Source of the DNA: Deltaproteobacteria bacterium
GTDB lineage: Bacteria; Desulfobacterota; Deferrimicrobia; Deferrimicrobiales; Deferrimicrobiaceae
Assembly: GCA_037439645.1 (NCBI GenBank)
Contig: JBBIVQ010000005.1
Location: 10,368-74,367, forward strand
Length of the DNA stretch: 64,000 bases
Direction: 5' to 3'
Position numbers and translations under genes: made by a program. A model generated the notes under the pieces. That model searched no databases, was not told where the DNA came from, and worked only from the letters and a program-made list of their open reading frames with translations. Below, one piece after another: positions 37,418 through 57,538 of the stretch; the stretch's first letter is position 1, and each line of letters begins with the position of its first letter.

Positions 37418-38514
<1,097 letters not shown>

Positions 38515-38689: not shown

Positions 38690-39327
38690 TTGAACGGGAT
38701 ATCCCCCGGCTCGGAATCCGGGTTCCTTCGGCAACGCTTCGCCGGTTCTGGGCCATGCTGGGCCACGCCCACGGCCAGGTCTGGAACGCCGCGGAGTTCG
38801 CGCGTTCGTTCGGGGTCGGCGAGTCGACGGTGCGCCGATACCTGGACCTTCTGGCCGGGACCTTCGTCGTCCGCCAGCTCACGCCCTGGCACGAAAACCT
38901 GCGGAAGCGGCAGGGGAAGTCGCCGAAGATCTACTTTACCGACAGCGGGTTACTGCACACCCTGATGCAGACGGAAACGAGGGCGGCCATCCTTGAGCAC
39001 CCGAGGCTGGGCGCATCCTGGGAGGGGTTCGCCCTGCAGGAGGTCATCGCCCGATTCGGGGCCCGGCCAGAGGAGTGTTTCTTCCGGGCGACCCACGGCG
39101 GGGCGGAGCTCGATCTTCTGATCGTGAGGGGAAAGACGCGCCTGGGGTTCGAGTTCAAGAGAACGGATGCGCCTCGCATGACGCCGTCCATGAGATCCGC
39201 CCTGTCGGATCTCCGCCTCGATACCTTGCATGTGGTCCACGCCGGCGAGCACCTGTTCTCGTTGGGGGAAAGGACCCGGGCGGTCCCTATCGGGGGACTG
39301 TTCGATGAGATCCGGCGGCTGAAATAG
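38690..39327 (+). pseudogene. DUF4143-domain C-terminal fragment of an AAA-family ATPase (N-terminal ATPase domain missing)
   Basis: RRFWAMLGHAHGQVWNAAEFARSFGVGESTVRRYLDLLAGTFVVRQLTPWHENLRKRQGKSPKIYFTDSGLLH matches DUF4143. Upstream remnants are scattered across frames. Confidence 0.6.
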
Positions 39328-42203: not shown

Positions 42204-42836
42204 TCATGGCGCCGTTCGACGCGAAGACGATCCTCGTCGAAAGGGCGAAGAAGCCGGCGGGCAACCTGCCCGGAACTCCTCCGAAAGCCAGGCGCCGAGC
42301 GCTCCGAGCACTCCTCCCCAGAGCGGGTGGGCCTTCTTCCGTGCCACCCGCTCGGCCTCGGGCAGCCACGACAGAAGATGGCGCTCGAGAAAGTCCGCCC
42401 TCGCGGAGCGGGCCGCCCGAACCGAATCCGCAGGGCCCCCGGGCCGTTCCTCAAGCCAGCAGAGGATCAGCAGGAAGCCGAGCTGGTTCCGCAGGTGGTC
42501 GGGGTTGTCGGCCGCGCCGTTCGACAGGTCGCATCCGAACGCCTTGTAATAGAGGATATTCTCGTGGAGGACCTCCGGCACGCTCTCCTCCTTCCGGTAA
42601 TGGGTCTCGAAGAGGGGAACCGGTGGCGCCGGGAAGCCGACGTCGAAGGTCGACAGGACGAACGACTCCCATTCCCCCGGATCCCGGGGAAGGTCCTCCC
42701 GGAGTGCATGGGGGCTCCCTGGACCGAGCCAACCGCGCGAGGCGAGATCCTCGAGCCAGTCGGAGGAGAGGATCAGCTCCTGCTGCTCCTTCCCCGGTCG
42801 GCCGAAGGCCAGGAGGAAGGAACGTGCCATCGCCAT
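42204..42836 (-). CDS. TorD/NarJ-family redox-enzyme maturation chaperone (delta subunit)
   Basis: NPDHLRNQLGFLLILCWLEE matches the TorD-family E(P)DHL motif. The gene lies downstream of the molybdoenzyme genes. Confidence 0.7.
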   Translation of the reverse strand: MAMARSFLLAFGRPGKEQQELILSSDWLEDLASRGWLGPGSPHALREDLPRDPGEWESFVLSTFDVGFPAPPVPLFETHYRKEESVPEVLHENILYYKAFGCDLSNGAADNPDHLRNQLGFLLILCWLEERPGGPADSVRAARSARADFLERHLLSWLPEAERVARKKAHPLWGGVLGALGAWLSEEFRAGCPPASSPFRRGSSSRRTAP

Positions 42837-42880
42837 CCGGTCGCCCCCCGGACGGGACCCTGTCCGACCCTTCTCCTGCG

Positions 42881-43552
42881 TCACCTCGCGAACCGATACC
42901 ACGGGGTGTACCACTTGTAGCCGTTCCGGTCCCCCGTCCCTCCGTCCCAGACGGCGAACGCCATCGGTACCGCCGGGTCGAAGTCGCGGACGATGAAGGT
43001 CACGCTCCTGCGGATTCCCGCACGCGACGGTTCGGCCGTCATCCCGGTCTCCTCCGGCGTCTTTTCGACCGTCCCGCGGCCCCGTGCGTGGAGCGTTTCC
43101 ACCTTTGAACCGGCCCGCCACAAGACCATTCGCACCTCCCGGTCGCGATCCCCCATCATGATCCCCGGGTTTCTTGCTCCCGGCTTCCGGGGAAGCATCA
43201 GCGCCGCGGCGTCTCCGAAGGCGTCCGTCCGCCCGGTGGGCTTCCGGTAGATGGAATCGTCTCCGTAGGCGGCCCGCTTGGCTCCAGCCACGGCATCTTC
43301 CGTCGGGTCGTCCCAGGAGAGGGTCACCCGCAGCACCTTCCCCTCGATCCGTGCCATGGCGCGCGCATGAAGGTCCCGGTTCAAAACGGCCCGGTCCGTG
43401 GCGAACATCGGGGGAGTCCGATTGAGCAGAAGCGGCGTCTCTTTGCCTTGCGCCAACGTGAATCCCGCGAACGCCGGGGCCGACCCGAGAAGAACGGCCG
43501 CCGCGACGAGCGAAACGATCGGTTGCCGCATCGGGAAATCCCTCCGGATCAT
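42881..43552 (-). CDS. Heme-b gamma subunit of a type II DMSO-reductase-family enzyme (EbdC/DdhC/SerC-like EB_dh domain), signal peptide
   Basis: Signal peptide MRQPIVSLVAAAVLLGSAPAFA. Size and position after the beta subunit fit. The start overlaps the beta subunit stop. Confidence 0.65.
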   Translation of the reverse strand: MIRRDFPMRQPIVSLVAAAVLLGSAPAFAGFTLAQGKETPLLLNRTPPMFATDRAVLNRDLHARAMARIEGKVLRVTLSWDDPTEDAVAGAKRAAYGDDSIYRKPTGRTDAFGDAAALMLPRKPGARNPGIMMGDRDREVRMVLWRAGSKVETLHARGRGTVEKTPEETGMTAEPSRAGIRRSVTFIVRDFDPAVPMAFAVWDGGTGDRNGYKWYTPWYRFAR

Positions 43553-44547
43553 CCGGTTGCCCCCTTCCCGGCGGGAATCCGGTACCGAACCTTGTCATCC
43601 CGACCGATCAGCAACTGGAGCACATCGCTCTTCCCCCCCGACTGGGCGATTTCCAACTCCGCGGCCAGCCGGGACGCCACCTCCTTGACCCGCGGACCGA
43701 ACAGCGCTTCCAGGGATTTCCACGGGATCCTCGGGTCGTGCAGGATCCCTTTCCCGTACGCGCCCCGGCGGGGAGGGTTGAAGGGGGGAACGTAGTAGAC
43801 GTTGGGACCGGTCCCCTTGCCCGGAAGAAGCGGCAGCGCCACCTTGTGGACCCGGACCAGCTGGTGGACCGGGGAGAGCGGGTCGCCCAGCATCCCCACG
43901 AACCGGAGCCGCCCCGGGCACTGTTTCGCGCAGGCGTTGGGGGTTCCCTTGGCCAGTCTCGGGTAGCAGAAGATGCATTTCTGCGAGACACCGGCCACCT
44001 CGTTCATGTAGATCTTCTTGTAGGGGCAGGCGCGGACGCACTGTCGGTACCCGCGGCACCGTTCCTGGTCGATCAGGACGATCCCGTCCTCATCCCGTTT
44101 GTAGATCGCCTTGCGGGGACAGGCTTCGAGGCAGGCCGGGTGCGTGCAGTGGTTGCAGATCCGCGGCAGGTAGAAGAAGTGGGTCTCCCCCCGGTCGGTG
44201 TCCCCCACGTCCTCTCCCCAGTTCGGCCCGTTGGTCGGGTCGACGTGGGGCATCACCGGCTTCCCCTTTCCTTCGAAGAGACGCTGGGAATAGTCGTACT
44301 CGAAGGGAACTCCGTACTTCCCGATCGGAGGGATCTCCCCCGGGGCCACCCGCCCGTCGCGAAACCCGCCTCCCGCCTCCGACCATCCGGCCGGGTATCC
44401 CGCCCCGGGGCGGGTCTCGACGTTGTTCCAGTACATGTAGCCCATCCCGTCCCGGTCGGTCCACAGCTTCTTGCAGGCGACGGTGCAGGTCTGGCACCCG
44501 AGGCACTTGTTCAGGTCCATCACCATGGCGTACTGCATCTTCGACAT
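43549..44547 (-). CDS. Fe-S beta subunit (NarH/NxrB/EbdB-like, four Cys clusters)
   Basis: MSKMQYAMVMDLNKCLGCQTCTVACK..., CNHCTHPACLEACP, CRGYRQCVRACP and CIFCYPRL. The upstream part of ORF 43549..45798 was rejected. Confidence 0.85.
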   Translation of the reverse strand: MSKMQYAMVMDLNKCLGCQTCTVACKKLWTDRDGMGYMYWNNVETRPGAGYPAGWSEAGGGFRDGRVAPGEIPPIGKYGVPFEYDYSQRLFEGKGKPVMPHVDPTNGPNWGEDVGDTDRGETHFFYLPRICNHCTHPACLEACPRKAIYKRDEDGIVLIDQERCRGYRQCVRACPYKKIYMNEVAGVSQKCIFCYPRLAKGTPNACAKQCPGRLRFVGMLGDPLSPVHQLVRVHKVALPLLPGKGTGPNVYYVPPFNPPRRGAYGKGILHDPRIPWKSLEALFGPRVKEVASRLAAELEIAQSGGKSDVLQLLIGRDDKVRYRIPAGKGATG

Positions 44548-44567
44548 CGCGGGCTCCTCGGAGGAAC

Positions 44568-47330
44568 TTACGTCCGGACCTTCTCCACTTCGACCTTCAC
44601 GTCCCGGTTGTTTCCCGTAGGCCCCCAGTAGTTGAGGCGGAAGTTGACATGCCCGTACTTTCCGACCAGCTGGGTCGGCTTGATCTTGATGTACGTGAGC
44701 GACTGCCATCCCCCGTGCCGGAAACCGAGGAACTTCTCCCAACCGTGGTACATCGTCACCCGCCCCCGCCGCTCGCCGGGCAGGATCTTCGCGCGGACGA
44801 CGCAGAAGCCGATGTGATTGCGGATCCGGATCCAGTCGTTGTCCCGGATTCCGCGGGCGGCGGCGTCCGCCGGGTTCAGGTACGCGATCGGCATTCCCCG
44901 CTGAAGACGGAGCATGTAGCGGTTGTCCCTCCACGTGGAGTGGATCGACCAGCGGCCGTGGGGCGTGTTCCAGTACAGCGGGTACGGGTCGGTCACCTGC
45001 TCCTTCGACACCGGGAGCTCCTCCCCGAGATCCAGGAACCAGGGGTGGTCGATGTAGAACTGCTGCCGGCCGACGAGCGTCCGCCACGGCCGCTTCTTGT
45101 ACACCTGGTGCTTGAAGGGCGTGTAGGCGACCCCTTCCTCGACGTCCGAGTTCCAGGAGACGGGATCGGTCCGCACGAACCGGCGAGGCCGCTCCTTGAG
45201 GCCGGCGTAGGTCATCCCCTTCGTCTCCTCCGCGTTCGCCAGGATGAAGTTCGCCGCTTCTTCGTCGGTCGAGATCTTCCCGCCTCCCGACCAGAGCGCG
45301 TGCACCTTCGTGAAGTCGCGCTCCCAGCCGAACTGACCGTCGCGGTAGGGGGGGAGCCCGCGGCGGACGGCGACCTCCCCGATCTTCTTCGCCAGCGCGG
45401 AGAAGATGTCCCAGTCGGTGCGGCTCTCGAAGAGCGGGTCGAGCACCTTCGAGAAGGGGTGGATGTAGGAATGGCAGTCGGTGGTGTTCAGGTCGGTCTT
45501 CTCGTAGTAGCTGGCCGCCGGGAGGACGATGTCGGAGTAGAGGGCGGTCGTGTCCATCCGGTAGTTGACGTTCACGATCAGGTCGAGATCGTTCCACAGG
45601 GAAGGGAGGATCTTTTCGTTCCCCTTCGCCTGGTTCAGGTAGTTCGCCCTCCAGACGATCAACGACCGGGGCTTCTGCTTCCGGTTCTTCGGGTAGAGCG
45701 GCATCCACCCGTTCGCCACGCTCTCCTCGATATACTTCTCGATCTTTTTCCCGTTGTAGGTGTGCTCGTCCTTGTTGGCGGAGTGGACGTAGGTCCAAAG
45801 CGTCGTGTTCTGGAATCGCTGCTTCTTTCCCCCTTCCGGGAAGGCGAGCTTCTTGAAGCCTTCCTCCGGCCAGACCCGCTCCTGTCCCACGTAATGGTTG
45901 AACCCGCCGCCGTTCTTCCCGGTGTTGCCGGTCAGGGCGACCAACAGGATCATCGACCGGTTGATCAGGTCGTTGTGGAACCAGTGGTTCGTCCCCGCCC
46001 CGTGGATGATCATCGCCGGCTTGCGCGTCCCCATCATCCGGGCGAACGCGACGATGTCCCGGCGGTCCAGCCCGGTCGTGCGGGCCACCTTGTCGAGCGT
46101 GTAGCCGCGAAGAACCTTTCGCAGCCGCTCGAAGACCGGGACGACCGCCATCTTCTCCCCCGTCTTGCCTGTCACCTCGTACCGGCCGGTCAGGGCGGGC
46201 ACGGCCCCCGCCAACCCGATCGACTTCACCGGGGACCCCATGGAGCCCGGCGCCTTCTTCACTTTCCCGTCCCTTTCATCGACGAAGTAGAAGACTTCGT
46301 CGCTCCCTTTCGCCTCCAGGTCCGACTCCCGCAGGAAGCGGCGGGTCCTCTCCACGACCAGGAGCGGCATGTCGGTCTGCTCCCGGACGTAGGAGGGGTC
46401 GAACAGTTTTTCCTCGACAAGGATGCGCGCCACGCCCATGGCGAGGTCGGCGTCGGTCCCCGGCGCGATTCCGAGGAAGAGGTCCGCGTGGGTGCAGCTC
46501 GAATTGAAGTCGGGAGAGATCCCGACCACCTTCGCTCCGTTGTACCGGGCCTCGAAGGCGAAGTGGGCGTCGGGGATCCGGGTCTGGGTGACGTTGGCCC
46601 CCCAGAAGACGATCAGTTTCGCGTTGAACCAGTCGGCGCACTCGCACGCCTCGGTCTGCACACCCCACGTAAGCGGTTCCCCCGGGGGCAGGTCGCAATA
46701 CCAGTCGTAGAAGGAACAGACGACCCCTCCGATGTAATGAGCCAGCCGCGATCCTGCGCAGAAGGAGACCGGGCTCATCGCGGGGATCACGCTGAAGAAG
46801 GTGTTCGTGTCCGGACCGTAGCGGTAGACGTTGTCCAGCAGTTTTCCGGCGATCGACTCCAGGGCCTCGTCCCATGTGGCGCGCCGCCACTTCCCCTCCC
46901 CCCGCTTCCCCGTCCGGATGAGCGGAAAACGGAGCCGCTGCGCTCCGTAGACGTACTCGACGAAGCAGGCCCCTTTCTGGCAGCCGCGGGGGTTGTAGTC
47001 GGGCAGGTCCTCGCTGATCCGGGGATAGTCGGAGGCCTGCTCCTCCCGAAGCATCACCCCGTCCTTGACGTAGACCTTCCAGGAGCAGGAACCCGTGCAG
47101 TTCGCCGAGTGGGTCGACCGGGCCACCTTGTCCCAGCTCCACTGTTTCGCGTAGAGCGACTCCCATCCGCGGTACGGGTAGCTCCGCATCGGGTCGTAGT
47201 CGAACCGGAATCCCGGGACCTCCGGCGGGGACTCCTTGCCGGCCCCTGCGGCGCCGGCCAGGAGCCCCGCGGCCGAGAGGGAGGAGATCCAGAGAAACCT
47301 CCTGCGGCTGATCTTCCCGTCGGACATCAT
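44568..47330 (-). CDS. Molybdopterin alpha subunit, type II DMSO reductase family (NarG/NxrA/EbdA/PcrA-like), Tat-exported
   Basis: Tat motif SRRRFLWISSLSAAGLL, the FS0 motif STHSANCTGSCSWKVYVKDG (H-x3-C-x3-C), about 920 aa. An AGGAGG Shine-Dalgarno precedes the start, which overlaps the cytochrome c stop (ATGA). Confidence 0.9.
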   Translation of the reverse strand: MMSDGKISRRRFLWISSLSAAGLLAGAAGAGKESPPEVPGFRFDYDPMRSYPYRGWESLYAKQWSWDKVARSTHSANCTGSCSWKVYVKDGVMLREEQASDYPRISEDLPDYNPRGCQKGACFVEYVYGAQRLRFPLIRTGKRGEGKWRRATWDEALESIAGKLLDNVYRYGPDTNTFFSVIPAMSPVSFCAGSRLAHYIGGVVCSFYDWYCDLPPGEPLTWGVQTEACECADWFNAKLIVFWGANVTQTRIPDAHFAFEARYNGAKVVGISPDFNSSCTHADLFLGIAPGTDADLAMGVARILVEEKLFDPSYVREQTDMPLLVVERTRRFLRESDLEAKGSDEVFYFVDERDGKVKKAPGSMGSPVKSIGLAGAVPALTGRYEVTGKTGEKMAVVPVFERLRKVLRGYTLDKVARTTGLDRRDIVAFARMMGTRKPAMIIHGAGTNHWFHNDLINRSMILLVALTGNTGKNGGGFNHYVGQERVWPEEGFKKLAFPEGGKKQRFQNTTLWTYVHSANKDEHTYNGKKIEKYIEESVANGWMPLYPKNRKQKPRSLIVWRANYLNQAKGNEKILPSLWNDLDLIVNVNYRMDTTALYSDIVLPAASYYEKTDLNTTDCHSYIHPFSKVLDPLFESRTDWDIFSALAKKIGEVAVRRGLPPYRDGQFGWERDFTKVHALWSGGGKISTDEEAANFILANAEETKGMTYAGLKERPRRFVRTDPVSWNSDVEEGVAYTPFKHQVYKKRPWRTLVGRQQFYIDHPWFLDLGEELPVSKEQVTDPYPLYWNTPHGRWSIHSTWRDNRYMLRLQRGMPIAYLNPADAAARGIRDNDWIRIRNHIGFCVVRAKILPGERRGRVTMYHGWEKFLGFRHGGWQSLTYIKIKPTQLVGKYGHVNFRLNYWGPTGNNRDVKVEVEKVRT

Positions 47331-48736
47331 TTCCTCCTTGCGGACAGGGTGCGCAGGTACGACAGCAGGTCCGCCACTTCCCCCCCGTCGAGCCCGGTTC
47401 CCCCCGGCCCCGTGAAAGCCACCATCGCGGTACCGGGACGCCCGTTTGCGATCGTCTTCAGGATCATCGCGTCGCTCCCCTTTTCCTGGAGGGGACGCGA
47501 GGAAAGCGTCGGCGCCACCTGTCCCTTCGCCGGGTCGTGGCATCCGGCGCACTGCTCGAGGAAGATCCGTTTCCCCTGTTCCGGGTTCCCGGGGGGAGGC
47601 TTCGCCGCGGTTTCGACCCGACGCTCGGGAACGTTTCCGGGTCCCGCGAGGTAGTCGAGCAACCTCCCGAGGTCCGCGTCGTTCATCCCTCCCTCGAAAC
47701 CGGCCATCAGGGTCCCCGGACGGCCCCCGACGATGTTGGCCCGCAGGAATTCCCGGTCGGTCGTCCGGAGAAAGGCGGGGTTGCGGATCGCGGGGACGAA
47801 GCGGCCGAGGAACCTGTCGAAAATGCCGAATGTGCCGTCTCCGTGGCAGACCCGGCAGAGCCGGTCGTACAGCGTTTTCCCGTCCCGCTCCCCGAAGTCG
47901 TGCTCCCGCGAAAGAAACCGGTGCCGGTCGCGGGCGACCAGCCGGTCGGGCAGTTCCCGGCCCGCCTGCAGCGAAAGCATGTAGACGGTCAGCGCGTACG
48001 CATCGTCGTCGGTAGGGTAGCCAGGCATCATGAGGCTGTTCGGAACGATCCCCTGCGGGTCCTTGAAATGGAGGTCGAGCCACCGGTAGGCGGTTTTTTC
48101 CCCCGGCAGGTTCGCCATGACCAGCTGATGCTTCGTCTTCCGTCCGACCGAGTCCAGCTCGGCCCCGAGCGATCCACCCAACCCCCCAAGACGATGGCAG
48201 CCGTGACACCCCATCTCCTCGAAGAGCCGCGCACCCCGGGACAGGACCGGTGCACCGCGCGATTCGACCGCCGCCGGGTCGTGGCAGATCCCGCAGGACG
48301 ATTCCACCAGCTCCTTCGGAAGGAGGGGATAGTCCCAGTGCGCTTCCACGGCCTTGGCCTCCCGGAAGCTCACGGCCGCTCCCATTCCCCGGTGGCAGAT
48401 CGTGCAGCCGAACTTCTCCGGCGGATGGGCCTTCAGGATATCGCCGGGGTGCGGCGCGAACGGGTTGGCGGCCCCGGCCATCCGCGGGTCCTCCATCCCG
48501 AGGTGGCAGGTCACGCACCGGTCGACGACTCCCAGGTCCGGCACGACGACCTGCCGCAATTCCACGGGCATCGCCAAGGCTTCCTTTTTCTCCGCGGGCG
48601 TCCGGGCGCGCTGCGCGAGCAGCCGCGCGTACTCCTTCTGGTACCCTTTCCATGAAACGAAGACGTTTTCCGACAGGCTCGAAGCGAGGAGGAACCCGAG
48701 GGCGGCCAGGCTCGAGACCAGGAGAAGTTTCTTCAT
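47327..48736 (-). CDS. Hexaheme c-type cytochrome with signal peptide
   Basis: Six CxxCH motifs (CVTCH, CTICH, CGICH, CHGCH, CRVCH, CAGCH) and the signal peptide MKKLLLVSSLAALGFLLA. Confidence 0.8.
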   Translation of the reverse strand: MKKLLLVSSLAALGFLLASSLSENVFVSWKGYQKEYARLLAQRARTPAEKKEALAMPVELRQVVVPDLGVVDRCVTCHLGMEDPRMAGAANPFAPHPGDILKAHPPEKFGCTICHRGMGAAVSFREAKAVEAHWDYPLLPKELVESSCGICHDPAAVESRGAPVLSRGARLFEEMGCHGCHRLGGLGGSLGAELDSVGRKTKHQLVMANLPGEKTAYRWLDLHFKDPQGIVPNSLMMPGYPTDDDAYALTVYMLSLQAGRELPDRLVARDRHRFLSREHDFGERDGKTLYDRLCRVCHGDGTFGIFDRFLGRFVPAIRNPAFLRTTDREFLRANIVGGRPGTLMAGFEGGMNDADLGRLLDYLAGPGNVPERRVETAAKPPPGNPEQGKRIFLEQCAGCHDPAKGQVAPTLSSRPLQEKGSDAMILKTIANGRPGTAMVAFTGPGGTGLDGGEVADLLSYLRTLSARRK

Positions 48737-48738
48737 CG

Positions 48739-50274
48739 TCAGTGCACCGGCCAATCCGAGGGGCTCCAGTAGAAGCCCCAGTTCGGTCCACGGAAATATG
48801 TTCCGATCAGCGTCAGGACGAGAAACCCGGCGAGGAAGCAGGTGAAGATCGCGATCCCCCCCATCCGGGTGCTGTTTTCCCGCCGGATGATATGGACGGA
48901 GAACGCGACGTAGAGAAAGGTGAGGAGCGTCCCCGGGTTGAGGAAGGTGATCACGATCTGCGGGATTTCCGGGACCCAGTTCCGAAGCCAACCGACGCGG
49001 ACGGCGAACGCCTCGATCCCGATCACCGCGCCCAGGCCGAAGGCGGCCGATTCGAGAAAGACCCGCTTGGGACGCTCCCCCTTCCCAAGCCAGTGCCCGA
49101 CCCCGCCCGGCTCACGGTCCAGGTAGGGGATCAGTCCCAGCCCGAGCAGTGTGATCATCGGCAGGAGCACTCCGCCCGCAAAGGCCGAGAAGGAGACGAT
49201 CTCCTGCAGGCCGAGGAAGTACCAGGGAGCCTTGGCCGGGTTTTCCGGGATCAGCGGGTTCGCCATCTCCTTGAGCGGCGCGTCGAAGAACCAGGAGAGG
49301 GCGACGGTGACCGCAAGGGTGAGCATGAACACGGCCGCCTCCGCGGTCATCAGGTGGGGCCAGGCGGGGACCGTGTTCTCGGGGCCTCTCCCGACGCTCG
49401 GGCTCGTCCCGCGAACCACCGCCATCAATCCGTAACTCTTCTTCGGCGCCTGCGTGAAGACCGGAAGGACCTCCTCTCCGGCCGGACCGAGGCGTTCGTC
49501 CGCGTCCTCCGGCCGGGAGAGCCCCCCGTCCTTCCGGATCCTCCAGAAGTGGAGCCCGAGGAAGAGGAGCATCAGCAACGGCAGGACCATGACGTGGAGG
49601 ACGTAGAACCGGATCAGCGCCTCTTCCCCCACGGAGCGGGATCCGAGCAGCAGCGTCTTCTGGACCCCTCCGGGGTCGAAGTACCGGGTGACGCCGGCCG
49701 CGTCGGTCAGTTCCTTCGGCGACTGCGCGATGTTCGCGCCGATCGTGGTCGCCCAGTAGGCGAGCTGGTCCCAGGGCAGGAGGTACCCGCTGAAGGAAAG
49801 GCCCAGCGTCAGAACGAGGAGCACCAGCCCGAACACCCAGTTCATCTCCCGCGGCGTCTTGTAGGAAGAGGTGTAGAAGACCCGCGCCATGTGGAAGATC
49901 ACCGCGATCACCATCAGGTGCGCTCCCCAACGGTGGATGTTCCGGATGAACCGGCCGGAAGGGACGACGAAATGGATGTCCTGGATCGACTGGTAGGCCA
50001 GCAAGGTGGACGGCTTGTAGTAGAACATCAACAACACCCCGGTCGCCACCAGCAGGACGAACGATGCGGCGCAGATCAGCCCCAGGCCGAGGGTGGAGGA
50101 CCACCGCAGGCTCCACCGGTGCACACGCGTCGGGTGGATGTGCAGGAACAGGTTCTGGAACACCGCTTCCATCCGGGACCGGTCGGTCACCGGCGCCCCG
50201 TGCCGGACCAGGCTGTCCCACACGGAGCGCGGGACCGCCTTCACGCCGGCGACATATTCCTTCCATGCTTCCAC
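48739..50274 (-). CDS. Cytochrome b (bc-complex cytochrome b, fused N- and C-terminal domains)
   Basis: The cytochrome b N-terminal region with His ligands (HRWGAHLMVIAVIFHMARVFY ... LLPWDQLAYWATTIG) and multiple TM helices. GTG start with an AAGGAGGG Shine-Dalgarno. Confidence 0.85.
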   Translation of the reverse strand: MEAWKEYVAGVKAVPRSVWDSLVRHGAPVTDRSRMEAVFQNLFLHIHPTRVHRWSLRWSSTLGLGLICAASFVLLVATGVLLMFYYKPSTLLAYQSIQDIHFVVPSGRFIRNIHRWGAHLMVIAVIFHMARVFYTSSYKTPREMNWVFGLVLLVLTLGLSFSGYLLPWDQLAYWATTIGANIAQSPKELTDAAGVTRYFDPGGVQKTLLLGSRSVGEEALIRFYVLHVMVLPLLMLLFLGLHFWRIRKDGGLSRPEDADERLGPAGEEVLPVFTQAPKKSYGLMAVVRGTSPSVGRGPENTVPAWPHLMTAEAAVFMLTLAVTVALSWFFDAPLKEMANPLIPENPAKAPWYFLGLQEIVSFSAFAGGVLLPMITLLGLGLIPYLDREPGGVGHWLGKGERPKRVFLESAAFGLGAVIGIEAFAVRVGWLRNWVPEIPQIVITFLNPGTLLTFLYVAFSVHIIRRENSTRMGGIAIFTCFLAGFLVLTLIGTYFRGPNWGFYWSPSDWPVH

Positions 50275-50299
50275 CCGCGTTCCCTCCTTTCCCGAAGCG

Positions 50300-50767
50300 T
50301 CAGGCCTTCCAGCAGGTTCCCGGCGGGACCGTTTCGCCCTCGTCCACCATCAGCTGCCCGTCGGGCGCCTTCGCCACCTTGAGCCAGTCGAGCGCGCGCG
50401 GGGCCGGCCCTCCGACGACCCTTCCCATCGCATCGAAGCGGGATCCGTGGCAGGGGCAGTCGAATCCGGTGGGGGAGGGGGCCACGATGCACCCGAGGTG
50501 GGTGCACACCGCGGAGATCGCGAAGACCCCCTGTTCCCCGCGGGAGACGAAGATGTTCCGCCCCGGCACCTTCCGGTATTCCCCTTCGGGGATCGACCCG
50601 GGAAGACCCACCTTCCCTTTCAGGGAGGGTTCCGGCAGGACGGAGGGCTTGGGCAGGCGGAAGACGCCGACCAGCGCCGCCGCCAGCGCGGCGCAAAAGG
50701 CGCCCCATGCCCCCCATGTCAGGAAATCCCTTCGTCCGGACTGCGCTACCCGGTCGTCTGCGGACAT
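50300..50767 (-). CDS. Rieske [2Fe-2S] iron-sulfur protein, Tat signal
   Basis: Tat motif SGRRDFLTWGAWGAF and Rieske boxes CTHLGCIV and CPCHGSRF. Confidence 0.85.
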   Translation of the reverse strand: MSADDRVAQSGRRDFLTWGAWGAFCAALAAALVGVFRLPKPSVLPEPSLKGKVGLPGSIPEGEYRKVPGRNIFVSRGEQGVFAISAVCTHLGCIVAPSPTGFDCPCHGSRFDAMGRVVGGPAPRALDWLKVAKAPDGQLMVDEGETVPPGTCWKA

Positions 50768-52644
50768 CGCCATTCCTCCCGGAAGTGATACCGTTCCATC
50801 GTGATGGCCCCGACGGGGCACCGCTTCTCGCAGTTCGCACACCGGATACAACGATCCTCGTCCTTGATGATCGCCGACCAGGCCTCGCCGGGCCCGCCCG
50901 GGGCGAGCCCGGCACGGGTCGAACGATCCAGCGCCAATGCGTCGAGGGGGACGAGTTTCAGGCACAGGGTCGGGCAGACGTCGGCGCACCCGCCGCAAAG
51001 GATGCAACGGTCCGAATCGAAGATCGTGTTCACGCCGCAATCGAGGCATCGACCCGCCTCCGCGGCCGCCTCCTCCGGTCCGTACCCGGTTTCCACCTGG
51101 AGATCGATCCGCAGCTTCCGCGTGTCCACCGGCGCCGCCGGCACCGGAGTCCGGGGGACCGCCTCGTACCGCTTCTCCCTCCCGAACCGATCGAGAACCC
51201 GGTGGATCTCCACCCGCTCCGGGGAGATCTTCCGCCCGGTGAGCTCCCGGTAGATCGAGCGGGCCGCCTTCTTGCCGCTGGCGATCGCGTCGATCATCAG
51301 GCGAGTCCCGTGGGCGGCGTCGCCGGCGGCGAACACCTTCGGGTTCGTCGTGGACAGGGTCTCGGGATCCACCCGCAGCAGCCCGCGCTCGGTCAGGGCG
51401 ACCCCGTCACGCTCCGAAGAGAGGAAGGAAAGGTCCATCGCCTGCCCGATCGCGAGGATCACGGTGTCGGCCGGAAGAACGGTTCGTTCCCCGGGATCGT
51501 ACCGGGGGGCGAACCGCCCCCTGTCGTCGAACACCGAGAGGACCTTCTGGAAGACCACCTCCCGGACCTTCCCCGCCTCATCGAGGCGGATCTCGAGGGG
51601 ACCCACCCGGTTGAGACGGCGGATCCCCTCTTCCTCCCCCTCGCGGACCTCCACCGGGTCGGCCGGCATCTCGTCGAACGACTCCATGCAGCAGAGGGAA
51701 ACGTCCCGCACCCCCTCCTGGCGCAGCGCGGTCCGGGAAACGTCGAGATCCTCGTGGCGCAGCGCGGTCCGGGAAACGTCGTAGGCGACGGAACCGCCGC
51801 CGATCACCACGACGCGCCGGCCCAGCGGCACCGTCTCTCCCAGCGAAACGCTCCGCAGGAAATCGACCCCCCCGTGGACCCCGGTCCCGTCCGCGCCGGG
51901 GATCGGCAGGCCCCGGGAGCGCTTCGCCCCCACGGCGATCAGGACCGCGGCGTGGTCCCGCAGCAGGTCGTCGAACCCGACATCCCGTCCAACCTTCACC
52001 CCGCACCGGATGGTGACACCCAGCGCCTCGATGACGGCGATCTCCGCGCGGATCAGGTCCCGGGGAAGACGGTACTGCGGCACCCCGAGGTAGAGCATGC
52101 CGGCGGGGACCGGTTCCCATTCGAACACGACGGGGGAAAATCCCATCAACGCCAGGTCGTGCGCGGCGGACAGGCCGGACGGTCCGGATCCGACGATCGC
52201 CACCGGCTCCCCGTTCGCCGGGATGAAGTTTCCACGGACTCCCTCCCGGATCAGGGCGGCGAACTCCTCGGCCCCTCCGCATTCGAGGTAGGCGGCGTTG
52301 CGGAGCGCTTCGAACAGGTCTTCCCGGGGAAATTCCGCCGACTCCGGGCCGAATCGGCGGCAGGCATACCCTTTCAACGCCCGGATCGCCACGGGGGCGT
52401 CGATCTTCCCCCTGCGGCAGGCCGCTTCGCAGGGGGCGCCGCAGACCCGTCCGCACATAGAGGCCAGCGGGTTCGGTCCCCGGGCGATCAGGTAAGCCCG
52501 CAGCGCGTCCCCGGCGGCGATCGCGCGAATGTACCCCCGGGCGTCGGTTCCCACGGGGCAGGCGAACTGGCAACAGATCTGCTCCTTCCAGTATTCCCGG
52601 TCGGGAACCCGGACGTCGAAGGGGACCACTCCGGGGTGCGCCAC
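50746..52644 (-). CDS. NAD(P)H-dependent Fe-S flavoprotein oxidoreductase (GltD/NfnB-like with C-terminal 2x[4Fe-4S] ferredoxin domain)
   Basis: N-terminal Cys cluster CCQFACP...CGRVCGAPCEAAC, dinucleotide-binding GSGPSGLSAAHDL and VVVIGGGSVAYD, and C-terminal CLDCGVN...CILCGGCADVCP and CIRCANCEKRCP. GTG start. Contains an in-frame tandem duplication. Confidence 0.8.
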   Translation of the reverse strand: MAHPGVVPFDVRVPDREYWKEQICCQFACPVGTDARGYIRAIAAGDALRAYLIARGPNPLASMCGRVCGAPCEAACRRGKIDAPVAIRALKGYACRRFGPESAEFPREDLFEALRNAAYLECGGAEEFAALIREGVRGNFIPANGEPVAIVGSGPSGLSAAHDLALMGFSPVVFEWEPVPAGMLYLGVPQYRLPRDLIRAEIAVIEALGVTIRCGVKVGRDVGFDDLLRDHAAVLIAVGAKRSRGLPIPGADGTGVHGGVDFLRSVSLGETVPLGRRVVVIGGGSVAYDVSRTALRHEDLDVSRTALRQEGVRDVSLCCMESFDEMPADPVEVREGEEEGIRRLNRVGPLEIRLDEAGKVREVVFQKVLSVFDDRGRFAPRYDPGERTVLPADTVILAIGQAMDLSFLSSERDGVALTERGLLRVDPETLSTTNPKVFAAGDAAHGTRLMIDAIASGKKAARSIYRELTGRKISPERVEIHRVLDRFGREKRYEAVPRTPVPAAPVDTRKLRIDLQVETGYGPEEAAAEAGRCLDCGVNTIFDSDRCILCGGCADVCPTLCLKLVPLDALALDRSTRAGLAPGGPGEAWSAIIKDEDRCIRCANCEKRCPVGAITMERYHFREEWRCPQTTG

Positions 52645-52648
52645 GCCG

Positions 52649-53068
52649 CTATCCGTCCCTTCCGGGCGATCCCGCCGAAAGCGCGATATCGGCGATCGTG
52701 GTCCGCTCCATCAGTTCGACGAAGGATCGCTGCAGATCATTCCAGTTCCCGTGTTTGGAACAGCGCCTTCCGGGACACTCGGGATTGCCGACGATGCAGA
52801 GATGCCCCATCGTTTCCGGCTCGAACGTTTCGAGAACCGACTTCAGCGGGATCCGGGTTGCCCCTTCCTTCAGGCGATAGCCGCCGGTGCGACCCCGAAC
52901 CGATTCGACGAGCCCGTTGCGGGAGAGATGGAACAGGACCTTGGCGAGATATGGCGCGGGGATCCCCAGACGGCGCGCAAGCCCCCGGGCATGGAAAAAG
53001 GATCCCCGGGATTCCCCGGCGAGCAGCGCCAGGACCCAGATCGCATACCGGGACGTCTTGGAGATCAT
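52649..53068 (-). CDS. Rrf2-family transcriptional regulator (IscR/NsrR-like, Cys-containing)
   Basis: MISKTSRYAIWVLALLA is Rrf2-like, and there is a Cys cluster CIVGNPECPGRRC. Confidence 0.8.
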   Translation of the reverse strand: MISKTSRYAIWVLALLAGESRGSFFHARGLARRLGIPAPYLAKVLFHLSRNGLVESVRGRTGGYRLKEGATRIPLKSVLETFEPETMGHLCIVGNPECPGRRCSKHGNWNDLQRSFVELMERTTIADIALSAGSPGRDG

Positions 53069-53234
53069 GCGGCAATCCCCGGGTAATTAGGATATTAAGG
53101 TATGAATATCATGTGAGTGGAAAATGTCAAGAAAATCCGCCGCCCGTGAAGGGCGACCCTTTCCGGCGCCGTGAGAACCGGAGCATCGGACGAGGGGACG
53201 GGGCCAGCCCGTCCCCTCGTCCGTCGAAACAAGG

Positions 53235-56200: not shown

Positions 56201-56426
56201 CGGAGTAGATCACACTCGTCGCCTTCGACAGCGGGTAGCTCCCCGAGCGTTCCCCGGCCGCCTCGGCGGTTCCCAGAAGGTGGAACGCGTTTTCCATCCG
56301 GCTCATCAGAAGGGCGGAGCCGCCGAGGAACGCCCCGGATTTCAGCAGGGTCCGGCGGGACACGCTCGCCAGGGGCCATCGATCGACGGTTTCCTTCAGC
56401 TTGCAAGGTTTCTCGTTGGAAGACAT
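53235..56426 (-). CDS. Tat-exported molybdopterin oxidoreductase catalytic subunit, tetrathionate-reductase (TtrA)-like / PsrA-like
   Basis: Tat motif SRRTLLKSGAFLGGSAL, N-terminal Fe-S motif CLQCHTACP, TtrA-like blocks LALAMIRWIIENKRHDEKYLA and LAFAEKLQLPGFGKD, 1063 aa. A GGAGGAGG Shine-Dalgarno precedes the ATG. Confidence 0.85.
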   Translation of the reverse strand: MSSNEKPCKLKETVDRWPLASVSRRTLLKSGAFLGGSALLMSRMENAFHLLGTAEAAGERSGSYPLSKATSVIYSVCLQCHTACPIKVKILDGVAVKIDGNPYSENLIPNLPYGTALGKAAKIDALVCPKGQSGIQSLYDPYRIVKVLKRNGPRGSNRWEVISFDKAVSEIVSGGTLFAGIGESRHVPGLKELRALTDAKLSAEMGKDAKAVAEGKMKVAEFKAKHATNLDRLIDPDHPDLGPKNNRFVGMWGRIEHGRIEFGKRFMNGGFGSANIIEHTTICEQSHHIAYNEATKQYADGKWAGGITHMKPDSFNAEFIVYFGTGFVEANFGPPAMCPKVTEGISSGRLKVAVVDPRMSKSASRAWKWLPVKPSTDAALALAMIRWIIENKRHDEKYLAAANKAAAKAAGETTWSNSTHLVKIEKDGPGALLRASDIGTGDKDHFVVMAGGAPAAVKADDDKNAVTGTLDFSGEVNGVPVKTAFTILKEEAFSKTMTEWSKICGIPVADIETVAKELTSHGKKAGVEFYRGPVQHTNGYYNAQALIALNILIGNADHKGGLSVGGGHWHEFGDKSKAQFDVNKLHPGKMSPFGHKITREGSHYEKSTLFQGYPAKRPWLPFTSNVYQEALPSSADGYPYAAQAVWLHMGTPGLAVPAGQTALSILADTEKIPLFFATDIVLGETSMYADYVFPDTAIWERFGTPHASPDVPYAVSKFRQPTITPLTETVTVFGEKMHCSFEALALAFAEKLQLPGFGKDGFTPGLDLTSPVDWYLKLAANMAVGDKDGDAVPDASFDEMKTFLEARKHLKAAVFSEKRWEKAVGPDKWKKTVTVLNRGGRWGDWNPEVANPDGKLVKKYGKQFNLYCENVAKAKHSLTGKRFRGTGCFTQPEDAKGNMAVDMDMPLHLITYKEIFGGQSRTLPNNYWMSAILPENFLLVNAGTAKNLGFKDGEKARIVSKSNADGKWHLPNREPVDMVGKIKAVEGMAPGVVAVSWSFGHWGYGASDATVDGRTVKGEKRRAAGLCPNAAMKIDPVLKNTCMTDPIGGSASFYDTMVNLVKA

Positions 56427-56441
56427 TCGTTTACCTCCTCC

Positions 56442-57357: not shown

Positions 57358-57399
57358 TTTATAATTTATTGATAATGTTGGCGTTTTCCGGGAGGGAGC

Positions 57400-57504: not shown

Positions 57505-57538
57505 GTGAAGGGAATGACGTGTTTCCTGCCGCCGATGG

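Follow-up and report, generated by a model that had tools for sequence, protein, structure and literature searches.

A conserved gene cluster linking a Rieske/cytochrome b complex and a GltD-like flavoprotein to a probable periplasmic nitrate reductase

Nine adjacent genes on the minus strand of the window (the whole 64,000-nucleotide stretch of DNA that was analyzed) place a Rieske/cytochrome b complex, a hexahaem cytochrome c, and a GltD-like flavoprotein beside a molybdoenzyme with a NarG-type active site. Our leading, though still tentative, reading is that they form one operon for a respiratory supercomplex, or two tightly coupled complexes, that would reduce nitrate and yield NAD(P)H by bifurcation. 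Both halves were known before separately, one from haloarchaea and the other from anammox bacteria; their union appears to be an undescribed combination, and no description of the combined nine-gene operon was found in the searchable literature. If the reading is true, carriers of this union might be able to generate NAD(P)H during nitrate respiration.

Organization, control region, and conservation of the cluster

The inventory of nine tightly coupled genes given by the first-pass annotation was borne out by the gene models (Table 1). The genes occupy positions 42204-53068 and each lies at most 44 nt from the next or overlaps it, with intergenic distances of 4, -28, 25, 2, -4 (or -1), 20, -4, and 44 nt in the order of transcription. 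The start of the alpha gene overlaps the stop of the cytochrome c gene at ...GGAGGAAATGATG...

Table 1. Features of the cluster and its upstream region (positions in the window)
Feature	Positions	Strand	Details
Rrf2-family transcriptional regulator	52649-53068	-	139 aa; PF02082 90 bits; TIGR00738 97 bits (cutoff 73)
GltD/NfnB-like Fe-S flavoprotein	50746-52644	-	632 aa; Fer4_20, Pyr_redox_2, two C-terminal 4Fe-4S motifs
Rieske 2Fe-2S protein	50300-50773	-	157 aa; twin-arginine RRDFL/TM N-terminus; CTHLGC...CPCHGS
Fused cytochrome b6/subunit IV	48739-50274	-	511 aa; ~nine transmembrane helices
Hexahaem cytochrome c	47327-48736	-	469 aa; one N-terminal transmembrane helix; six CxxCH
Alpha, Mo-bisPGD catalytic subunit	44568-47330 (or start 47327)	-	920/919 aa; SRRRF Tat motif; FS0
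Beta, Fe-S subunit	43549-44547	-	332 aa; TIGR03478 456 bits (cutoff 481); PF13247 match
Gamma, EB_dh-type haem-b subunit	42881-43552	-	223 aa; Sec signal peptide
Delta, TorD/NarJ-type assembly chaperone	42204-42836	-	210 aa; PF02613 and TIGR03482 match
Promoter-like site upstream of rrf2	53103-53130	-	TTGACA 53130-53125, 16-nt spacer, TATTCA 53108-53103; read from sequence
Long GC-rich hairpin	53187-53224	-	directly after stop of upstream TtrA-like gene
Second hairpin, terminator-like	53139-53157	-	scan match

The TTGACA/TATTCA site upstream of rrf2 may function as a promoter; a consensus scan missed it, the last base of the -10 hexamer being A, and a comparable TTGACC-N17-TAATTC lies upstream of rrf2 in locus L001. 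The two hairpins probably mark the border between two transcription units, although the evidence for termination is weak, since the total of terminator-like hairpins in the scan was not above that in shuffled sequence. The neighborhood also contains a second oxyanion-type reductase and arsenic-resistance genes. The Rrf2 protein has three cysteines (C91, C98, and C103) and is probably of the Fe-S cluster-binding type, with scores far under the cutoffs of the specific NCBIfam equivalogs IscR, NsrR, and RirA. Its gene also adjoins the cluster in L001, L002, L003, L101, and L176, and the protein would probably control the operon upon a redox or N-oxide signal.

The arrangement is not a product of chance: its order is repeated in six independent full-length loci and four further partial or metagenomic ones. 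An eight-gene core is found in identical order in L001, L002, L003, L005, L012, and L013, and L103 likewise holds all eight core genes in order. In L104, truncated inside cytochrome b, the genes from cytochrome b through delta are visible. The seven genes that begin with the Rieske protein are present in L094 (Zixibacteria) and L095 (Armatimonadetes), reaching to the contig ends. In every syntenic locus the gene for the delta chaperone stands where it does in the window. Carriers of the eight-gene core are MAGs labelled Deltaproteobacteria/Deferrimicrobiaceae, Acidobacteriota, and unclassified bacteria, and all carriers seen are uncultured, known as MAGs or metagenome contigs. The subunits have diverged together, with identities of ~70% for alpha, ~60% for cytochrome b, ~55% for the GltD-like protein, and ~41% for cytochrome c.

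Redox subunits and active site

The Rieske box, CPCHGSRF, is of the 'S..F' type and is kept in all 14 of the Nar/Nxr-linked loci examined; its serine is the residue associated with higher potential. The closest solved structures are 9rk4 (Kuste4569) and 9rk3 (Kustd1480). The fused cytochrome b contains the haem-b ligands H114, H128, H227, and H242, an invariant N-terminal His45, the Qo motif APWY, and an SUIV-like part of five helices. Cytochromes b from clusters with Nar and from clusters with NXR fall into a single clade (86/100), within which the partner is either the periplasmic Nar type of the window or a Kuenenia-type NXR (873 bits versus 7b04); NXR-type enzymes lie beside the same bc module in L098, L099, L101, L102, L176, and L177. 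Pairing of this module with a Kuenenia-type NXR elsewhere points to the nitrate/nitrite couple. The flavoprotein is cytoplasmic and lacks transmembrane helices. It has a pair of clusters (Fer4_20) at the N-terminus, an FAD/NAD(P) domain, and a pair of 4Fe-4S motifs at the C-terminus; it is 43% identical to its counterpart in the Terriglobia locus L093. Its presence in the operon had been considered unusual, but two of the Rieske/cytochrome b complexes of Kuenenia contain a homologous NAD(P) oxidoreductase subunit (PMC12954380). The membrane-anchored cytochrome c comprises four N-terminal haems followed by two class-I cytochrome c domains, and its CxxCH motifs, at residues 74, 111, 148, 177, 294, and 396, are kept in position in six orthologues.

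The alpha subunit scores 1146 bits against TIGR03479 (cutoff 985), in agreement with its earlier assignment to the type II DMSO-reductase family, and 634 bits against TIGR01580, under the cutoff of 1084. It has the FS0 motif H74-x3-C78-x3-C82, the Mo ligand Asp213, the gate residue Glu484, and the signature FYDWYCDLPP...GQE[RK], which is that of Escherichia coli NarG and is invariant in 48/48 homologues. Fourteen of the 16 FS0/active-site positions of E. coli NarG are identical in alpha, among them the Asp, the Glu, and His546. Trp461, the gate residue that defines PcrA, is Glu in each of the 48 homologues, and Glu is the NarG counterpart of this Trp (PMC8301774). Identity is 46.8% to the annotated narG product of Haloferax mediterranei, whose nitrate-reductase enzyme is discussed in the same study (PMC8301774), 48% to PcrA, and 36% to ClrA, the active-site motif of which differs from that of alpha. 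The highest score against a solved structure is with PcrA (931 bits), compared with 214 bits for Kuenenia NxrA (7b04), and identity to NXR-type alphas is ~26%. The phylogenetic placement proposed as a check put alpha in a clade of its own, separate from PcrA, in neighbor-joining trees with a limited reference set that left out SerA, DdhA, Pyrobaculum pNar, and EbdA. In a tree of 50% representatives the motifs have diverged in the other clades, whereas the clade of the window alpha has the E. coli NarG motif.

The beta subunit shares 53% identity with Haloferax NarH and contains four groups of Cys; the three cysteines of the third imply a 3Fe-4S cluster. The gamma subunit scores below the curated cutoffs of its families (EB_dh, 30 bits versus 33; TIGR03477, 70 bits versus 170), so its identification as an EB_dh-type protein depends on these matches together with an alignment with ClrC and the Haloferax EB_dh protein (Orf7), in which Met-Gly and Gly-x-Lys are invariant. 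Met133 and Lys213 are the candidate axial ligands.

The first-pass annotation had likened the cluster to those of nitrite oxidoreductases and regarded the substrate as unreadable from sequence. The scores above place alpha outside the Nitrospira/anammox NXR lineage, and nitrate/nitrite is indicated as the substrate because alpha carries the NarG active site and is only 36% identical to ClrA, no chlorite dismutase (cld) gene was found in the window or in six loci, and the bc module also pairs with NXR. Most likely the enzyme is a nitrate reductase of the periplasm, supplied by its own quinol-oxidizing bc-type complex, the low-potential arm of which would connect to NAD(P). Reduction and oxidation are not distinguished by an active site of the NarG type; Nitrobacter NXR resembles NarG, and chlorate too is a substrate of NarG enzymes.

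Proposed electron path and alternatives

In the mechanism that we propose, alpha, beta, and the haem-b gamma subunit would form a soluble NarG-type enzyme at the membrane's outer face, matured by delta and converting nitrate to nitrite. Electrons would come from a dedicated Rieske/cytochrome b complex that oxidizes menaquinol. The first quinol electron would pass from the Rieske protein through the hexahaem cytochrome c, the gamma haem b, and the beta Fe-S chain to Mo, the step from cytochrome c to gamma being suggested by gene adjacency. The second would go to the pair of b haems in the fused cytochrome b, onto the cytoplasmic face of which the flavoprotein, with its four Fe-S clusters, FAD, and NAD(P) site, may dock; it would probably be reached via an extra haem held between the His45 residues of two cytochrome b monomers. 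Gly63 of the window cytochrome b stands where Kuenenia has the Cys ligand of haem cN, a Cys that is missing in the whole clade, and Arg511 of Kuste4570 is likewise replaced by Gly in the window, so the proposed wire may differ. The first-pass annotation, whose observations are confirmed and whose interpretation is partly supported, rightly saw a periplasmic Nar-like enzyme coupled to both a multihaem cytochrome and a complex of bc type, and rightly took the flavoprotein to imply an NAD(P)-linked route. For the NAD(P) arm we prefer the direction from quinol to NAD(P)+, by analogy with the homologous anammox complexes, for which NAD(P)H formation is itself a proposal (PMC12954380). Downhill transfer to nitrate (~+430 mV) would pull the second electron uphill to NAD(P)+ (~-320 mV), and NAD(P)H would be gained directly from quinol during nitrate respiration. 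Gene content, synteny, subunit homologies, and active-site residues are shown by the sequences; the substrate and the electron path are inferred from them, and this direction is what we infer with the greatest reserve.

The same hardware could run with the NAD(P) arm reversed, as an NAD(P)H:nitrate oxidoreductase that conserves energy and circumvents complex I, a direction already suggested in the first-pass annotation. NAD(P)H would then reduce quinone on the N-side via the Fe-S chain and the extra haem, and quinol would be oxidized on the P-side towards nitrate. Every step from -320 mV to +430 mV would be downhill with no special tuning, GltD/NfnB-type modules are reversible in other enzymes, and the missing haem cN Cys leaves N-side chemistry free. 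The Ser-type Rieske box, however, shared with Kustd1480 (measured at >+300 mV), suits bifurcation better in menaquinone organisms, and complex I already does this task in most bacteria. The sequence gives direct evidence for neither direction, and we consider reversal a real but rather unlikely alternative.

The remaining alternatives concern the molybdoenzyme and its link to the other genes. Its operation as a nitrite oxidoreductase, delivering nitrite electrons to the c haems while the bc module and flavoprotein drive reverse flow to quinone and NAD(P)+, would accord with the genuine Kuenenia/Nitrospira-type NXR homologues found beside the same module in other loci and with the interconvertibility of Nar/Nxr active sites. 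We judge it improbable: alpha falls outside every known NXR lineage, and a path from +430 mV to quinone and on to NAD(P)+ demands energy beyond the module's own supply. A nrfA-like gene (PF02335) lies ~10 kb from the NXR-type locus L176, so reduction of nitrate to ammonium fits better there, and the carrier lineages Acidobacteriota, Deferrimicrobiota, and Zixibacteria are not known as nitrifiers. Perchlorate, chlorate, selenate, dimethyl sulfide, or a hydrocarbon as the substrate is more doubtful again. The functional diversity of the family, the proximity to PcrA, and the adjoining oxyanion-type reductase and arsenic-resistance genes speak for such a substrate; the uniform replacement of the PcrA gate Trp by Glu, the lack of a nearby cld, the distance and different motif of ClrA, and a clade motif that has stayed that of E. 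coli NarG while others diverged speak against it. Finally, since the physical complex is a prediction from the genes, the bc-type and molybdoenzyme genes could be mere neighbors and the flavoprotein could have a separate cytoplasmic role, but order and coupling persist in different phyla, and stop codons overlap start codons. Among metagenome loci with enough flanking sequence, a cytochrome b at least 55% identical to that of the window was accompanied by a Nar/Nxr enzyme in 6/6 cases and by the flavoprotein in 4/4, whereas none of 26 loci with a more distant cytochrome b had a Mo enzyme. We therefore give mere proximity very little credence.

Relation to known systems

A Rieske/cytochrome b pair beside a periplasmic Nar is already known from haloarchaea. 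The narB-narC-narG-narH-orf7-narJ cluster of Haloferax mediterranei and Haloarcula marismortui shares with the window the order Rieske, cytochrome b, alpha, beta, EB_dh gamma, and TorD chaperone, and likewise encodes a Tat-exported NarG with the Asp ligand and Glu gate. The route proposed for it, in which electrons leave a bc-type complex and reach NarH and NarG by way of a haem b in the periplasm (PMC3509893), resembles that proposed for the window. The haloarchaeal cluster has neither the GltD-like flavoprotein nor the hexahaem cytochrome c. Its cytochrome b, of the Actinobacteria/Thermus-type lineage (PMC3509893), is only ~30% identical to that of the window, its Rieske box is of the low-potential type (CPCHFGKF), its gamma has a C-terminal membrane anchor that the window gamma lacks, and its NarG has an Asp where alpha retains the His546 of E. 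coli NarG.

Among other type II enzymes, E. coli NarGHI has the same active-site signature as the window alpha, but its NarG is cytoplasmic and 1247 aa long, compared with a periplasmic subunit of ~920 aa; the window cluster contains no NarI, and the Rieske/cytochrome b complex would supply electrons instead. PcrAB of Azospira (PDB 4ydd) is periplasmic like the window enzyme and shares its FS0, Asp ligand, and Phe-Tyr pair, but has a DHPT motif where the window alpha has DLPP. The NXR of Kuenenia and Nitrospira is also a periplasmic type II enzyme that has a gamma of the EB_dh type and a TorD chaperone, although its alpha is only distant kin.

The closest counterparts of the electron-transfer half are Kuenenia Kuste4569-4574 and Kustd1480-1485, which also comprise a Rieske protein, a cytochrome b of the b6 type, an SUIV with five helices, a hexahaem cytochrome c anchored in the membrane, and a GltD-like protein with four Fe-S clusters. 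Identities to the Kuenenia R/b-3 locus (L092) are 41% for Rieske, 46% for cytochrome b, 46% for SUIV, 26% for cytochrome c (N-terminus only), and 35% for the GltD-like protein over its full length. His45 aligns with His43 of Kuste4571, a proposed ligand of a novel inter-monomer haem b, and Arg247 is conserved too. Cytochrome b and SUIV are fused in the window and unfused in Kuenenia, the gene order differs, the flavoprotein gene preceding that of the Rieske protein in the window, the haem cN Cys of Kuenenia is missing from the window protein, and the window cytochrome c has two additional class-I domains. The high-potential partner is a HAO-like octahaem protein in Kuenenia and a Nar-type molybdoenzyme in the window.

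Composition of the cluster and affiliation of the molybdoenzyme

The nine genes were defined from the ORF listing and inspection of start sites, and the gaps between them in transcription order are 4, -28, 25, 2, -4, 20, -4, and 44 nt, with the alpha start overlapping the cytochrome c stop within GGAGGAAATGATG. The first-pass annotation had described a regulator, a flavoprotein, a Rieske/cytochrome b pair, a multihaem cytochrome c, and a four-gene type II DMSO-reductase-family set, and this description is accurate, because ORF inspection, the Pfam and NCBIfam models, and the helix, haem, and twin-arginine features agree; the models back each assignment, in the case of gamma with scores below the cutoffs. 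The regulator has three cysteines and passes no model other than that of the Rrf2 superfamily, and its scores give no support to an identity as NsrR (33.9 against a cutoff of 182) or IscR (58.5 against 207). A promoter-like TTGACA-N16-TATTCA is located 5' of rrf2, with a similar site in a 'Deltaproteobacteria' MAG (L001), and hairpins are found 3' of the upstream TtrA-like gene, hinting that the transcription unit starts at rrf2; these elements were read by hand, and the matches of a consensus promoter/terminator scan were no more numerous than in shuffled sequence.

Positions of the cluster genes and of neighbouring features in the window
Feature	Position	Strand	Remarks
Low-G+C stretch	~24000-34000		G+C 57-61% vs ~65%
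ArsR	34343-34768	minus	arsenic resistance
Double ArsA ATPase	35243-37417		arsenic resistance
Acr3/SBF-family transporter	37414-38514		arsenic resistance
DUF4143 protein	38755-39327		beyond the SNF2-family helicase
SNF2-family helicase, 936 aa	39372-42182	minus	directly downstream of delta
delta	42204-42836	minus	PF02613
gamma	42881-43552	minus	EB_dh and TIGR03477, both below cutoff
beta	43549-44547	minus	TIGR03478 slightly below cutoff, PF13247
alpha	44568-47330, or start at 47327	minus	twin-arginine motif, TIGR03479
Cytochrome c, 469 aa	47327-48736	minus	one N-terminal membrane helix, six CxxCH motifs
Cytochrome b, 511 aa	48739-50274	minus	~9 helices
Rieske protein	50300-50773	minus	twin-arginine motif
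GltD-like Fe-S flavoprotein, 632 aa	50746-52644	minus	Pfam/NCBIfam; without transmembrane helix
rrf2	52649-53068	minus	Rrf2 superfamily model passed
Second Tat-type molybdoenzyme gene set	53235-62072	minus	directly upstream of the cluster
TtrB/ArrB-like Fe-S subunit	56442-57290	minus	
485-aa ORF	57495-58952	minus	no family match
sCache/HAMP histidine kinase	58873-60366	minus	
Protein with two PhnD-like solute-binding domains	60342-62072	minus	

The second molybdoenzyme gene set includes a 1063-aa TtrA-like subunit that scores 447 bits, far under the TtrA cutoff of 1750, and its adjacency to the cluster is not conserved in other loci. On the other flank, neither the SNF2-family helicase nor the DUF4143 protein is conserved in the syntenic loci. 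Genes of defence or mobile type, encoding a DUF234/ATPase_2 protein, ARPP-1, a WYL-domain protein, a pRiA4 ORF3-like protein, and an AbiEii toxin, populate the low-G+C stretch, a finding that points to a possible variable genomic island close to the respiratory genes.

The alpha subunit passes the type II DMSO reductase alpha model TIGR03479 with 1145.9 bits (cutoff 984.75) and carries the Tat motif SRRRF, of which R9 and R10 are invariant. The beta subunit matches PF13247 and reaches 456 bits with TIGR03478 (cutoff 480.7), and delta matches PF02613. For gamma the scores are 30.3 with PF09459 (EB_dh; cutoff 33.3) and 70 with TIGR03477 (cutoff 170). Alignment of gamma with Ideonella ClrC and the EB_dh protein Orf7 of Haloferax shows Met133-Gly and Gly-x-Lys213 to be invariant, making Met133 and Lys213 candidate ligands if, as we presume from EbdC, the haem is held by a Met/Lys pair. 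Among solved structures, alpha is matched best by the perchlorate reductase PcrA (931 bits), followed by E. coli NarG (550 bits), ethylbenzene dehydrogenase (417 bits), and, over part of its length, Kuenenia NxrA (PDB ID 7b04; 214 bits). A plasmid search found no alpha of the window clade among annotated plasmids and yielded Haloferax NarG, Ideonella ClrA, and a cld-linked Clr-like enzyme as references, to which E. coli K-12 was added. Identity to alpha is 48.0% for PcrA, 36% for ClrA, 31% for the Clr-like enzyme, and 46.8% for the Haloferax mediterranei NarG, an enzyme discussed previously (PMC8301774). Neighbour-joining, the only tree method applied, recovers the window clade as monophyletic in 100 of 100 bootstraps and unites it with PcrA in eight and with Haloferax pNarG in none. 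Among the 1.84 billion 50%-identity representatives searched, a single one was more than 45% identical to alpha, and in the tree that includes these representatives the window clade is nearest to the cytoplasmic NarG group.

Three established affiliations can be weighed against these data. Membership of the characterised archaeal pNarG clade is contradicted by an identity of 46.8% and by the absence of any bootstrap grouping with Haloferax pNarG (0/100). A conventional NarGHI enzyme is disfavoured by a score of 633.9 bits with the equivalog model TIGR01580 (cutoff 1084), by the Tat signal, and by the absence of a NarI gene from the cluster. The first-pass annotation had pointed to nitrite oxidoreductase gene clusters; its coupling of a bc complex and a multihaem cytochrome c to a periplasmic Nar-like enzyme holds, but the likeness to NXR does not, with the window alpha giving only the partial 214-bit match to 7b04 and a genuine relative of the ~1150-aa Nitrospira/anammox NxrA, the alpha of locus L101, giving 873 bits over its full length. 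We conclude from these comparisons that alpha is a predicted periplasmic NarG-type enzyme belonging to a distinct bacterial clade.

The active site is of NarG type. The Mo ligand Asp213 is positioned within FYDWYCD, and the FS0 residues H74, C78, and C82, together with the aligned equivalent of C92, are kept in 48 of 48 homologues, as are the motifs FYDWYCDLPP and GQE[RK], which are those of E. coli NarG. Fourteen of the 16 FS0 and active-site positions of the E. coli enzyme are identical in alpha, including ten active-site residues without exception (N52, Y220, D222, H546, V578, G579, E581, H1092, H1098, and H1163); the only deviations, R94K and S719N, are common to all periplasmic relatives, and His546, lost in haloarchaea, is kept. 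Perchlorate or chlorate had to be considered as substrate since PcrA is the best solved-structure match. PcrA, however, has a DHPT motif and the diagnostic gate residue Trp461 (GQWK), and the motifs of the other clades have diverged, whereas the gate position is Glu484 in the window alpha and Glu in all 48 homologues, the state of bacterial and haloarchaeal NarG (PMC8301774). In addition, tblastn with two Cld sequences found no chlorite dismutase in the 64-kb window and six syntenic loci, the sole match (E = 0.05) lying inside an alpha gene. Gate residue, motif, and cld absence thus argue against (per)chlorate, and the most probable redox couple of alpha, judged from these residues, is nitrate/nitrite.

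The Rieske/cytochrome b/flavoprotein half

Among solved structures, those most similar to the Rieske protein are PDB IDs 9rk4 and 9rk3, the Rieske subunits Kuste4569 and Kustd1480 of two unusual Rieske/cytochrome b complexes of Kuenenia stuttgartiensis. These two complexes comprise a b6-like cytochrome b, a five-helix subunit-IV-like protein, a hexa- or octahaem cytochrome c that replaces cytochrome f, and, facing the cytoplasm, a putative NAD(P) oxidoreductase, and their Rieske potentials have been measured at ~+300 mV or higher (PMC12954380). A search with the 9rk4 sequence recovered a locus of this type from Kuenenia sp. (L092), which encodes a Rieske protein, a 581-aa NAD(P) oxidoreductase, cytochrome b, the subunit-IV-like protein (SUIV), a hexahaem cytochrome c, and a HAO-like octahaem protein. 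Identity of the window proteins to their counterparts in this locus is 35% over the full length for the flavoprotein, 41% for the Rieske protein, 46% for cytochrome b, and likewise 46% for the SUIV part; for the hexahaem cytochrome c the match is weak (26%) and restricted to the N-terminus. Cytochrome b and SUIV are one fused protein in the window, in contrast to the separate proteins of L092. In the fused protein, H114, H128, H227, and H242 align with the b6 haem ligands, and five hydrophobic segments within residues 308-490 make up the SUIV-like part. The GltD-like subunit has FAD and NAD(P) domains and motifs for four Fe-S clusters and is present wherever the upstream sequence suffices, and the cytochrome c, with one transmembrane helix and six CxxCH motifs, stands in place of cytochrome c1/f.

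AlphaFold3 models of the Kuenenia complexes suggest an extra haem b bound by the His43 residues of paired cytochrome b monomers and connecting to four Fe-S clusters and FAD (PMC12954380). His45 of the window cytochrome b aligns with His43 of Kuste4571 and is invariant in nine sequences, and it is proposed as a ligand of this novel dimer-interface haem b by analogy with the models. Arg247 is also conserved with Kuenenia. Arg511 of Kuste4570, a proposed contact of the extra haem, is Gly in the window and is unconserved. At the site of the haem cN cysteine, both the Kuenenia Cys and Cys35 of b6 align with Gly63, and helix A of the cytochrome b clade holds no conserved Cys. A separate cysteine, Cys479 (motif FTCFL) in the last transmembrane helix, is invariant in nine of nine aligned sequences. 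The Rieske box CPCHGS-x-F, found in 14 of 14 Nar/Nxr-linked loci, is of the same type as in Kustd1480 and differs from the box of haloarchaeal NarB, CPCHFGKF, which is of the low-potential type (classes according to PMC3509893). Cytochrome b also resembles the ExtP/ExtQ 'selenite/tellurite operon' models, with scores below cutoff (240 bits against 290) that were taken as general b6-family similarity.

Conservation of the cluster and exchange of the molybdoenzyme

Homologues of alpha number in the thousands, and the best 120, from many metagenomes and MAGs, are 65-90% identical. The order flavoprotein, Rieske, cytochrome b, hexahaem c, alpha, beta, gamma, delta is kept in every full locus looked up: the 'Deltaproteobacteria' MAG, a Terriglobia MAG (L002), an unclassified bacterium (L003/L004), a Bryobacteraceae MAG (L005), an Acidobacteriota chromosome-scale MAG (L012), and an uncultured bacterium (L013). 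The last two were the only relevant ones among the matches listed in a genome-collection scan with the alpha alignment, which selected patterns (FYDWYCD and NCTGSCSW) that cytoplasmic NarG also contains. Loci from Zixibacteria (L094) and Armatimonadetes (L095) match from the Rieske gene on, where their contigs end, and an rrf2 gene borders the cluster in the window as well as in L001, L002, and L003. In the cytochrome c orthologues all six haem motifs are found at constant positions, and the stop codon overlaps or abuts the alpha start. Identity across loci falls stepwise from alpha (~70%) and beta (~68%) through cytochrome b (~60%), flavoprotein (~55%), and Rieske (~49%) to cytochrome c (~41%) and gamma/delta (~35%), the pattern expected for parts that evolve together. 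The cluster is a conserved unit and no chance neighbourhood. The 90% cluster of the closest alpha includes a member labelled Candidatus Deferrimicrobiaceae, and the window therefore probably belongs to the MBNT15/Deferrimicrobiota lineage. For nine genomes of this phylum, its genome paper notes only a 'NarGHI-type nitrate reductase'.

For two alpha homologues (P0042 and P0063), the 90%-identity clusters also include c-type cytochromes and beta subunits, probably because overlapping gene junctions led to gene calls that were fused or mis-split, and their member counts of 918 and 541 exceed the true number of alpha sequences.

A metagenome scan with the cytochrome b alignment returned 80 loci. 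Where cytochrome b was at least 55% identical and enough flanking sequence was available, a type II molybdoenzyme followed downstream in six of six loci and the flavoprotein preceded in four of four; next to more distant cytochromes b a molybdoenzyme was present in none of 26 loci, and many of these keep the flavoprotein and a multihaem c. The molybdoenzyme was of the window-like pNar type in two of the six (L103 and L104). The other four (L098, L099, L101, and L102) carry an NXR-type alpha of ~1150 aa that is ~25% identical to the window alpha and, as the L101 match to 7b04 indicates, a full-length homologue of Kuenenia NxrA; the protein search added two further loci of this kind (L176 and L177). 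In the NXR-type loci, genes for the flavoprotein, the Rieske protein, a fused cytochrome b, and a multihaem c are followed by those for alpha, beta, an EB_dh gamma, and a chaperone. The NXR-linked sequences form a monophyletic group (100/100) in the cytochrome b tree that lies nested within the pNar-linked ones, and the two sets together make up a clade in 86 of 100 bootstraps. Tree and loci together indicate that a single bc subfamily has partners from two very different molybdoenzyme lineages, and the bc/flavoprotein/cytochrome c set is a portable module. Because characterised members of both partner lineages act on nitrate or nitrite, this exchange is also the strongest argument for a nitrate/nitrite substrate apart from the residues themselves.

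Several of the loci recovered have features of their own. The cytochrome c of L101 has seven haem motifs, an nrfA-like gene (PF02335) lies ~10 kb upstream in L176, and a Crp/Fnr-type regulator and a hemerythrin adjoin the cluster in L177. The NAD(P)-linked Rieske/cytochrome b family has a more distant representative, with a split cytochrome b, in a Terriglobia MAG (L093, 5243-16186). This locus also encodes an octahaem and another cytochrome c, a cupredoxin-like protein, and two proteins without family match, is preceded by an Rrf2 gene, and has no molybdoenzyme. L139, L143, and L150 are akin to it and contain cupredoxins, and in L145, L152, L165, and L175 a cupredoxin-like match was found and no flavoprotein was detected. 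In a MAG labelled Syntrophus aciditrophicus (L017, 2934-10419), a type II alpha 38% identical to the window alpha is located downstream of Rieske and cytochrome b genes, with ~2.7 kb between, and bc-type coupling of type II DMSO-reductase enzymes may therefore be more widespread.

Proposed electron flow and relation to known systems

We infer that quinol would be oxidised at the Qo site, with one electron passing through the Rieske cluster, the hexahaem c, the gamma haem b, and the beta clusters to Mo for periplasmic nitrate reduction, and the other passing through the b haems toward the flavoprotein. The transfer from menaquinol (~-70 mV) to nitrate (~+430 mV) would yield more than the step to NAD(P)+ (~-320 mV) would cost, and a matching thermodynamic argument has been made for nitrite in Kuenenia (PMC12954380). 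Quinol bifurcation with NAD(P)+ reduction was put forward for the Kuenenia complexes by Kartal et al., as a proposal only (PMC12954380). The arm could also run in reverse, with NAD(P)H as electron donor, and this direction would likewise be downhill; reduction of NAD(P)+ is preferred because the anammox complexes are homologous and because the Rieske box is of the Ser type. Oxidation of nitrite by the window alpha clade is the less likely direction at the molybdoenzyme, and it is comparatively more open for the NXR-type relatives.

With nitrate and NAD(P)+ as the two acceptors, we suggest tentatively, and with more doubt than confidence, that the cluster may encode a menaquinol-bifurcating nitrate reductase supercomplex. 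Such a complex would represent a third mode of respiratory nitrate reduction, in which for each external nitrate two electrons would be driven uphill through the b haems and flavoprotein onto NAD(P)+, so that the cell would draw low-potential reductant directly on its quinone pool with no need for reverse electron flow; the module would work with a Nar- or an NXR-type enzyme and be widespread in uncultured Acidobacteriota, Deferrimicrobiota, Zixibacteria, and relatives. NAD(P)H-generating bifurcation by Rieske/cytochrome b complexes has been proposed since 2013 and never shown, so far for anammox bacteria only and with an uncertain high-potential partner. On the present reading the partner is encoded in the operon and is chemically simple (nitrate/nitrite), so the hypothesis would become directly testable, and the main value of the combination is a defined system for testing NAD(P)H production by such complexes. 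If the reading is correct, the supercomplex would be a more tractable, non-anammox counterpart of these long-hypothesised complexes, abundant soil and sediment phyla would possess a nitrate-reducing route that is distinct and energy-relevant, and the exchange of a Nar- for an NXR-type enzyme on a common bc scaffold would be a clean example of modular respiratory-chain evolution. In current annotation pipelines the genes appear as 'NarGHI', 'Nxr' or 'selenate/chlorate reductase', which would then bear on the nitrogen-cycle potential inferred from metagenomes.

Full-text searches of the literature yielded two precedents and no description of the combined cluster, which subscription papers may mention. 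The parts are of known kinds. What appears to be undescribed is the way they are combined, the conservation of this arrangement across phyla, and the use of one bc scaffold by both Nar and NXR enzymes. Bacterial Nar was previously known as a cytoplasmic enzyme that bypasses the bc complex, and the haloarchaeal cluster has been read as a Rieske/cytochrome b complex feeding a periplasmic Nar through a periplasmic haem b (PMC3509893). The layout of the archaeal type, a Tat-exported NarG clustered with Rieske, cytochrome b, EB_dh gamma, and NarJ, is found in the window. The nar genes on pHME322 of Haloferax mediterranei are ordered Rieske, cytochrome b, small ORF, narG, narH, EB_dh protein, and TorD-like protein, and the window order is this order with a flavoprotein and a hexahaem c added. 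The window cluster thus unites the haloarchaeal-style bc-to-pNar arrangement with the anammox-style NAD(P)-linked bc complex.
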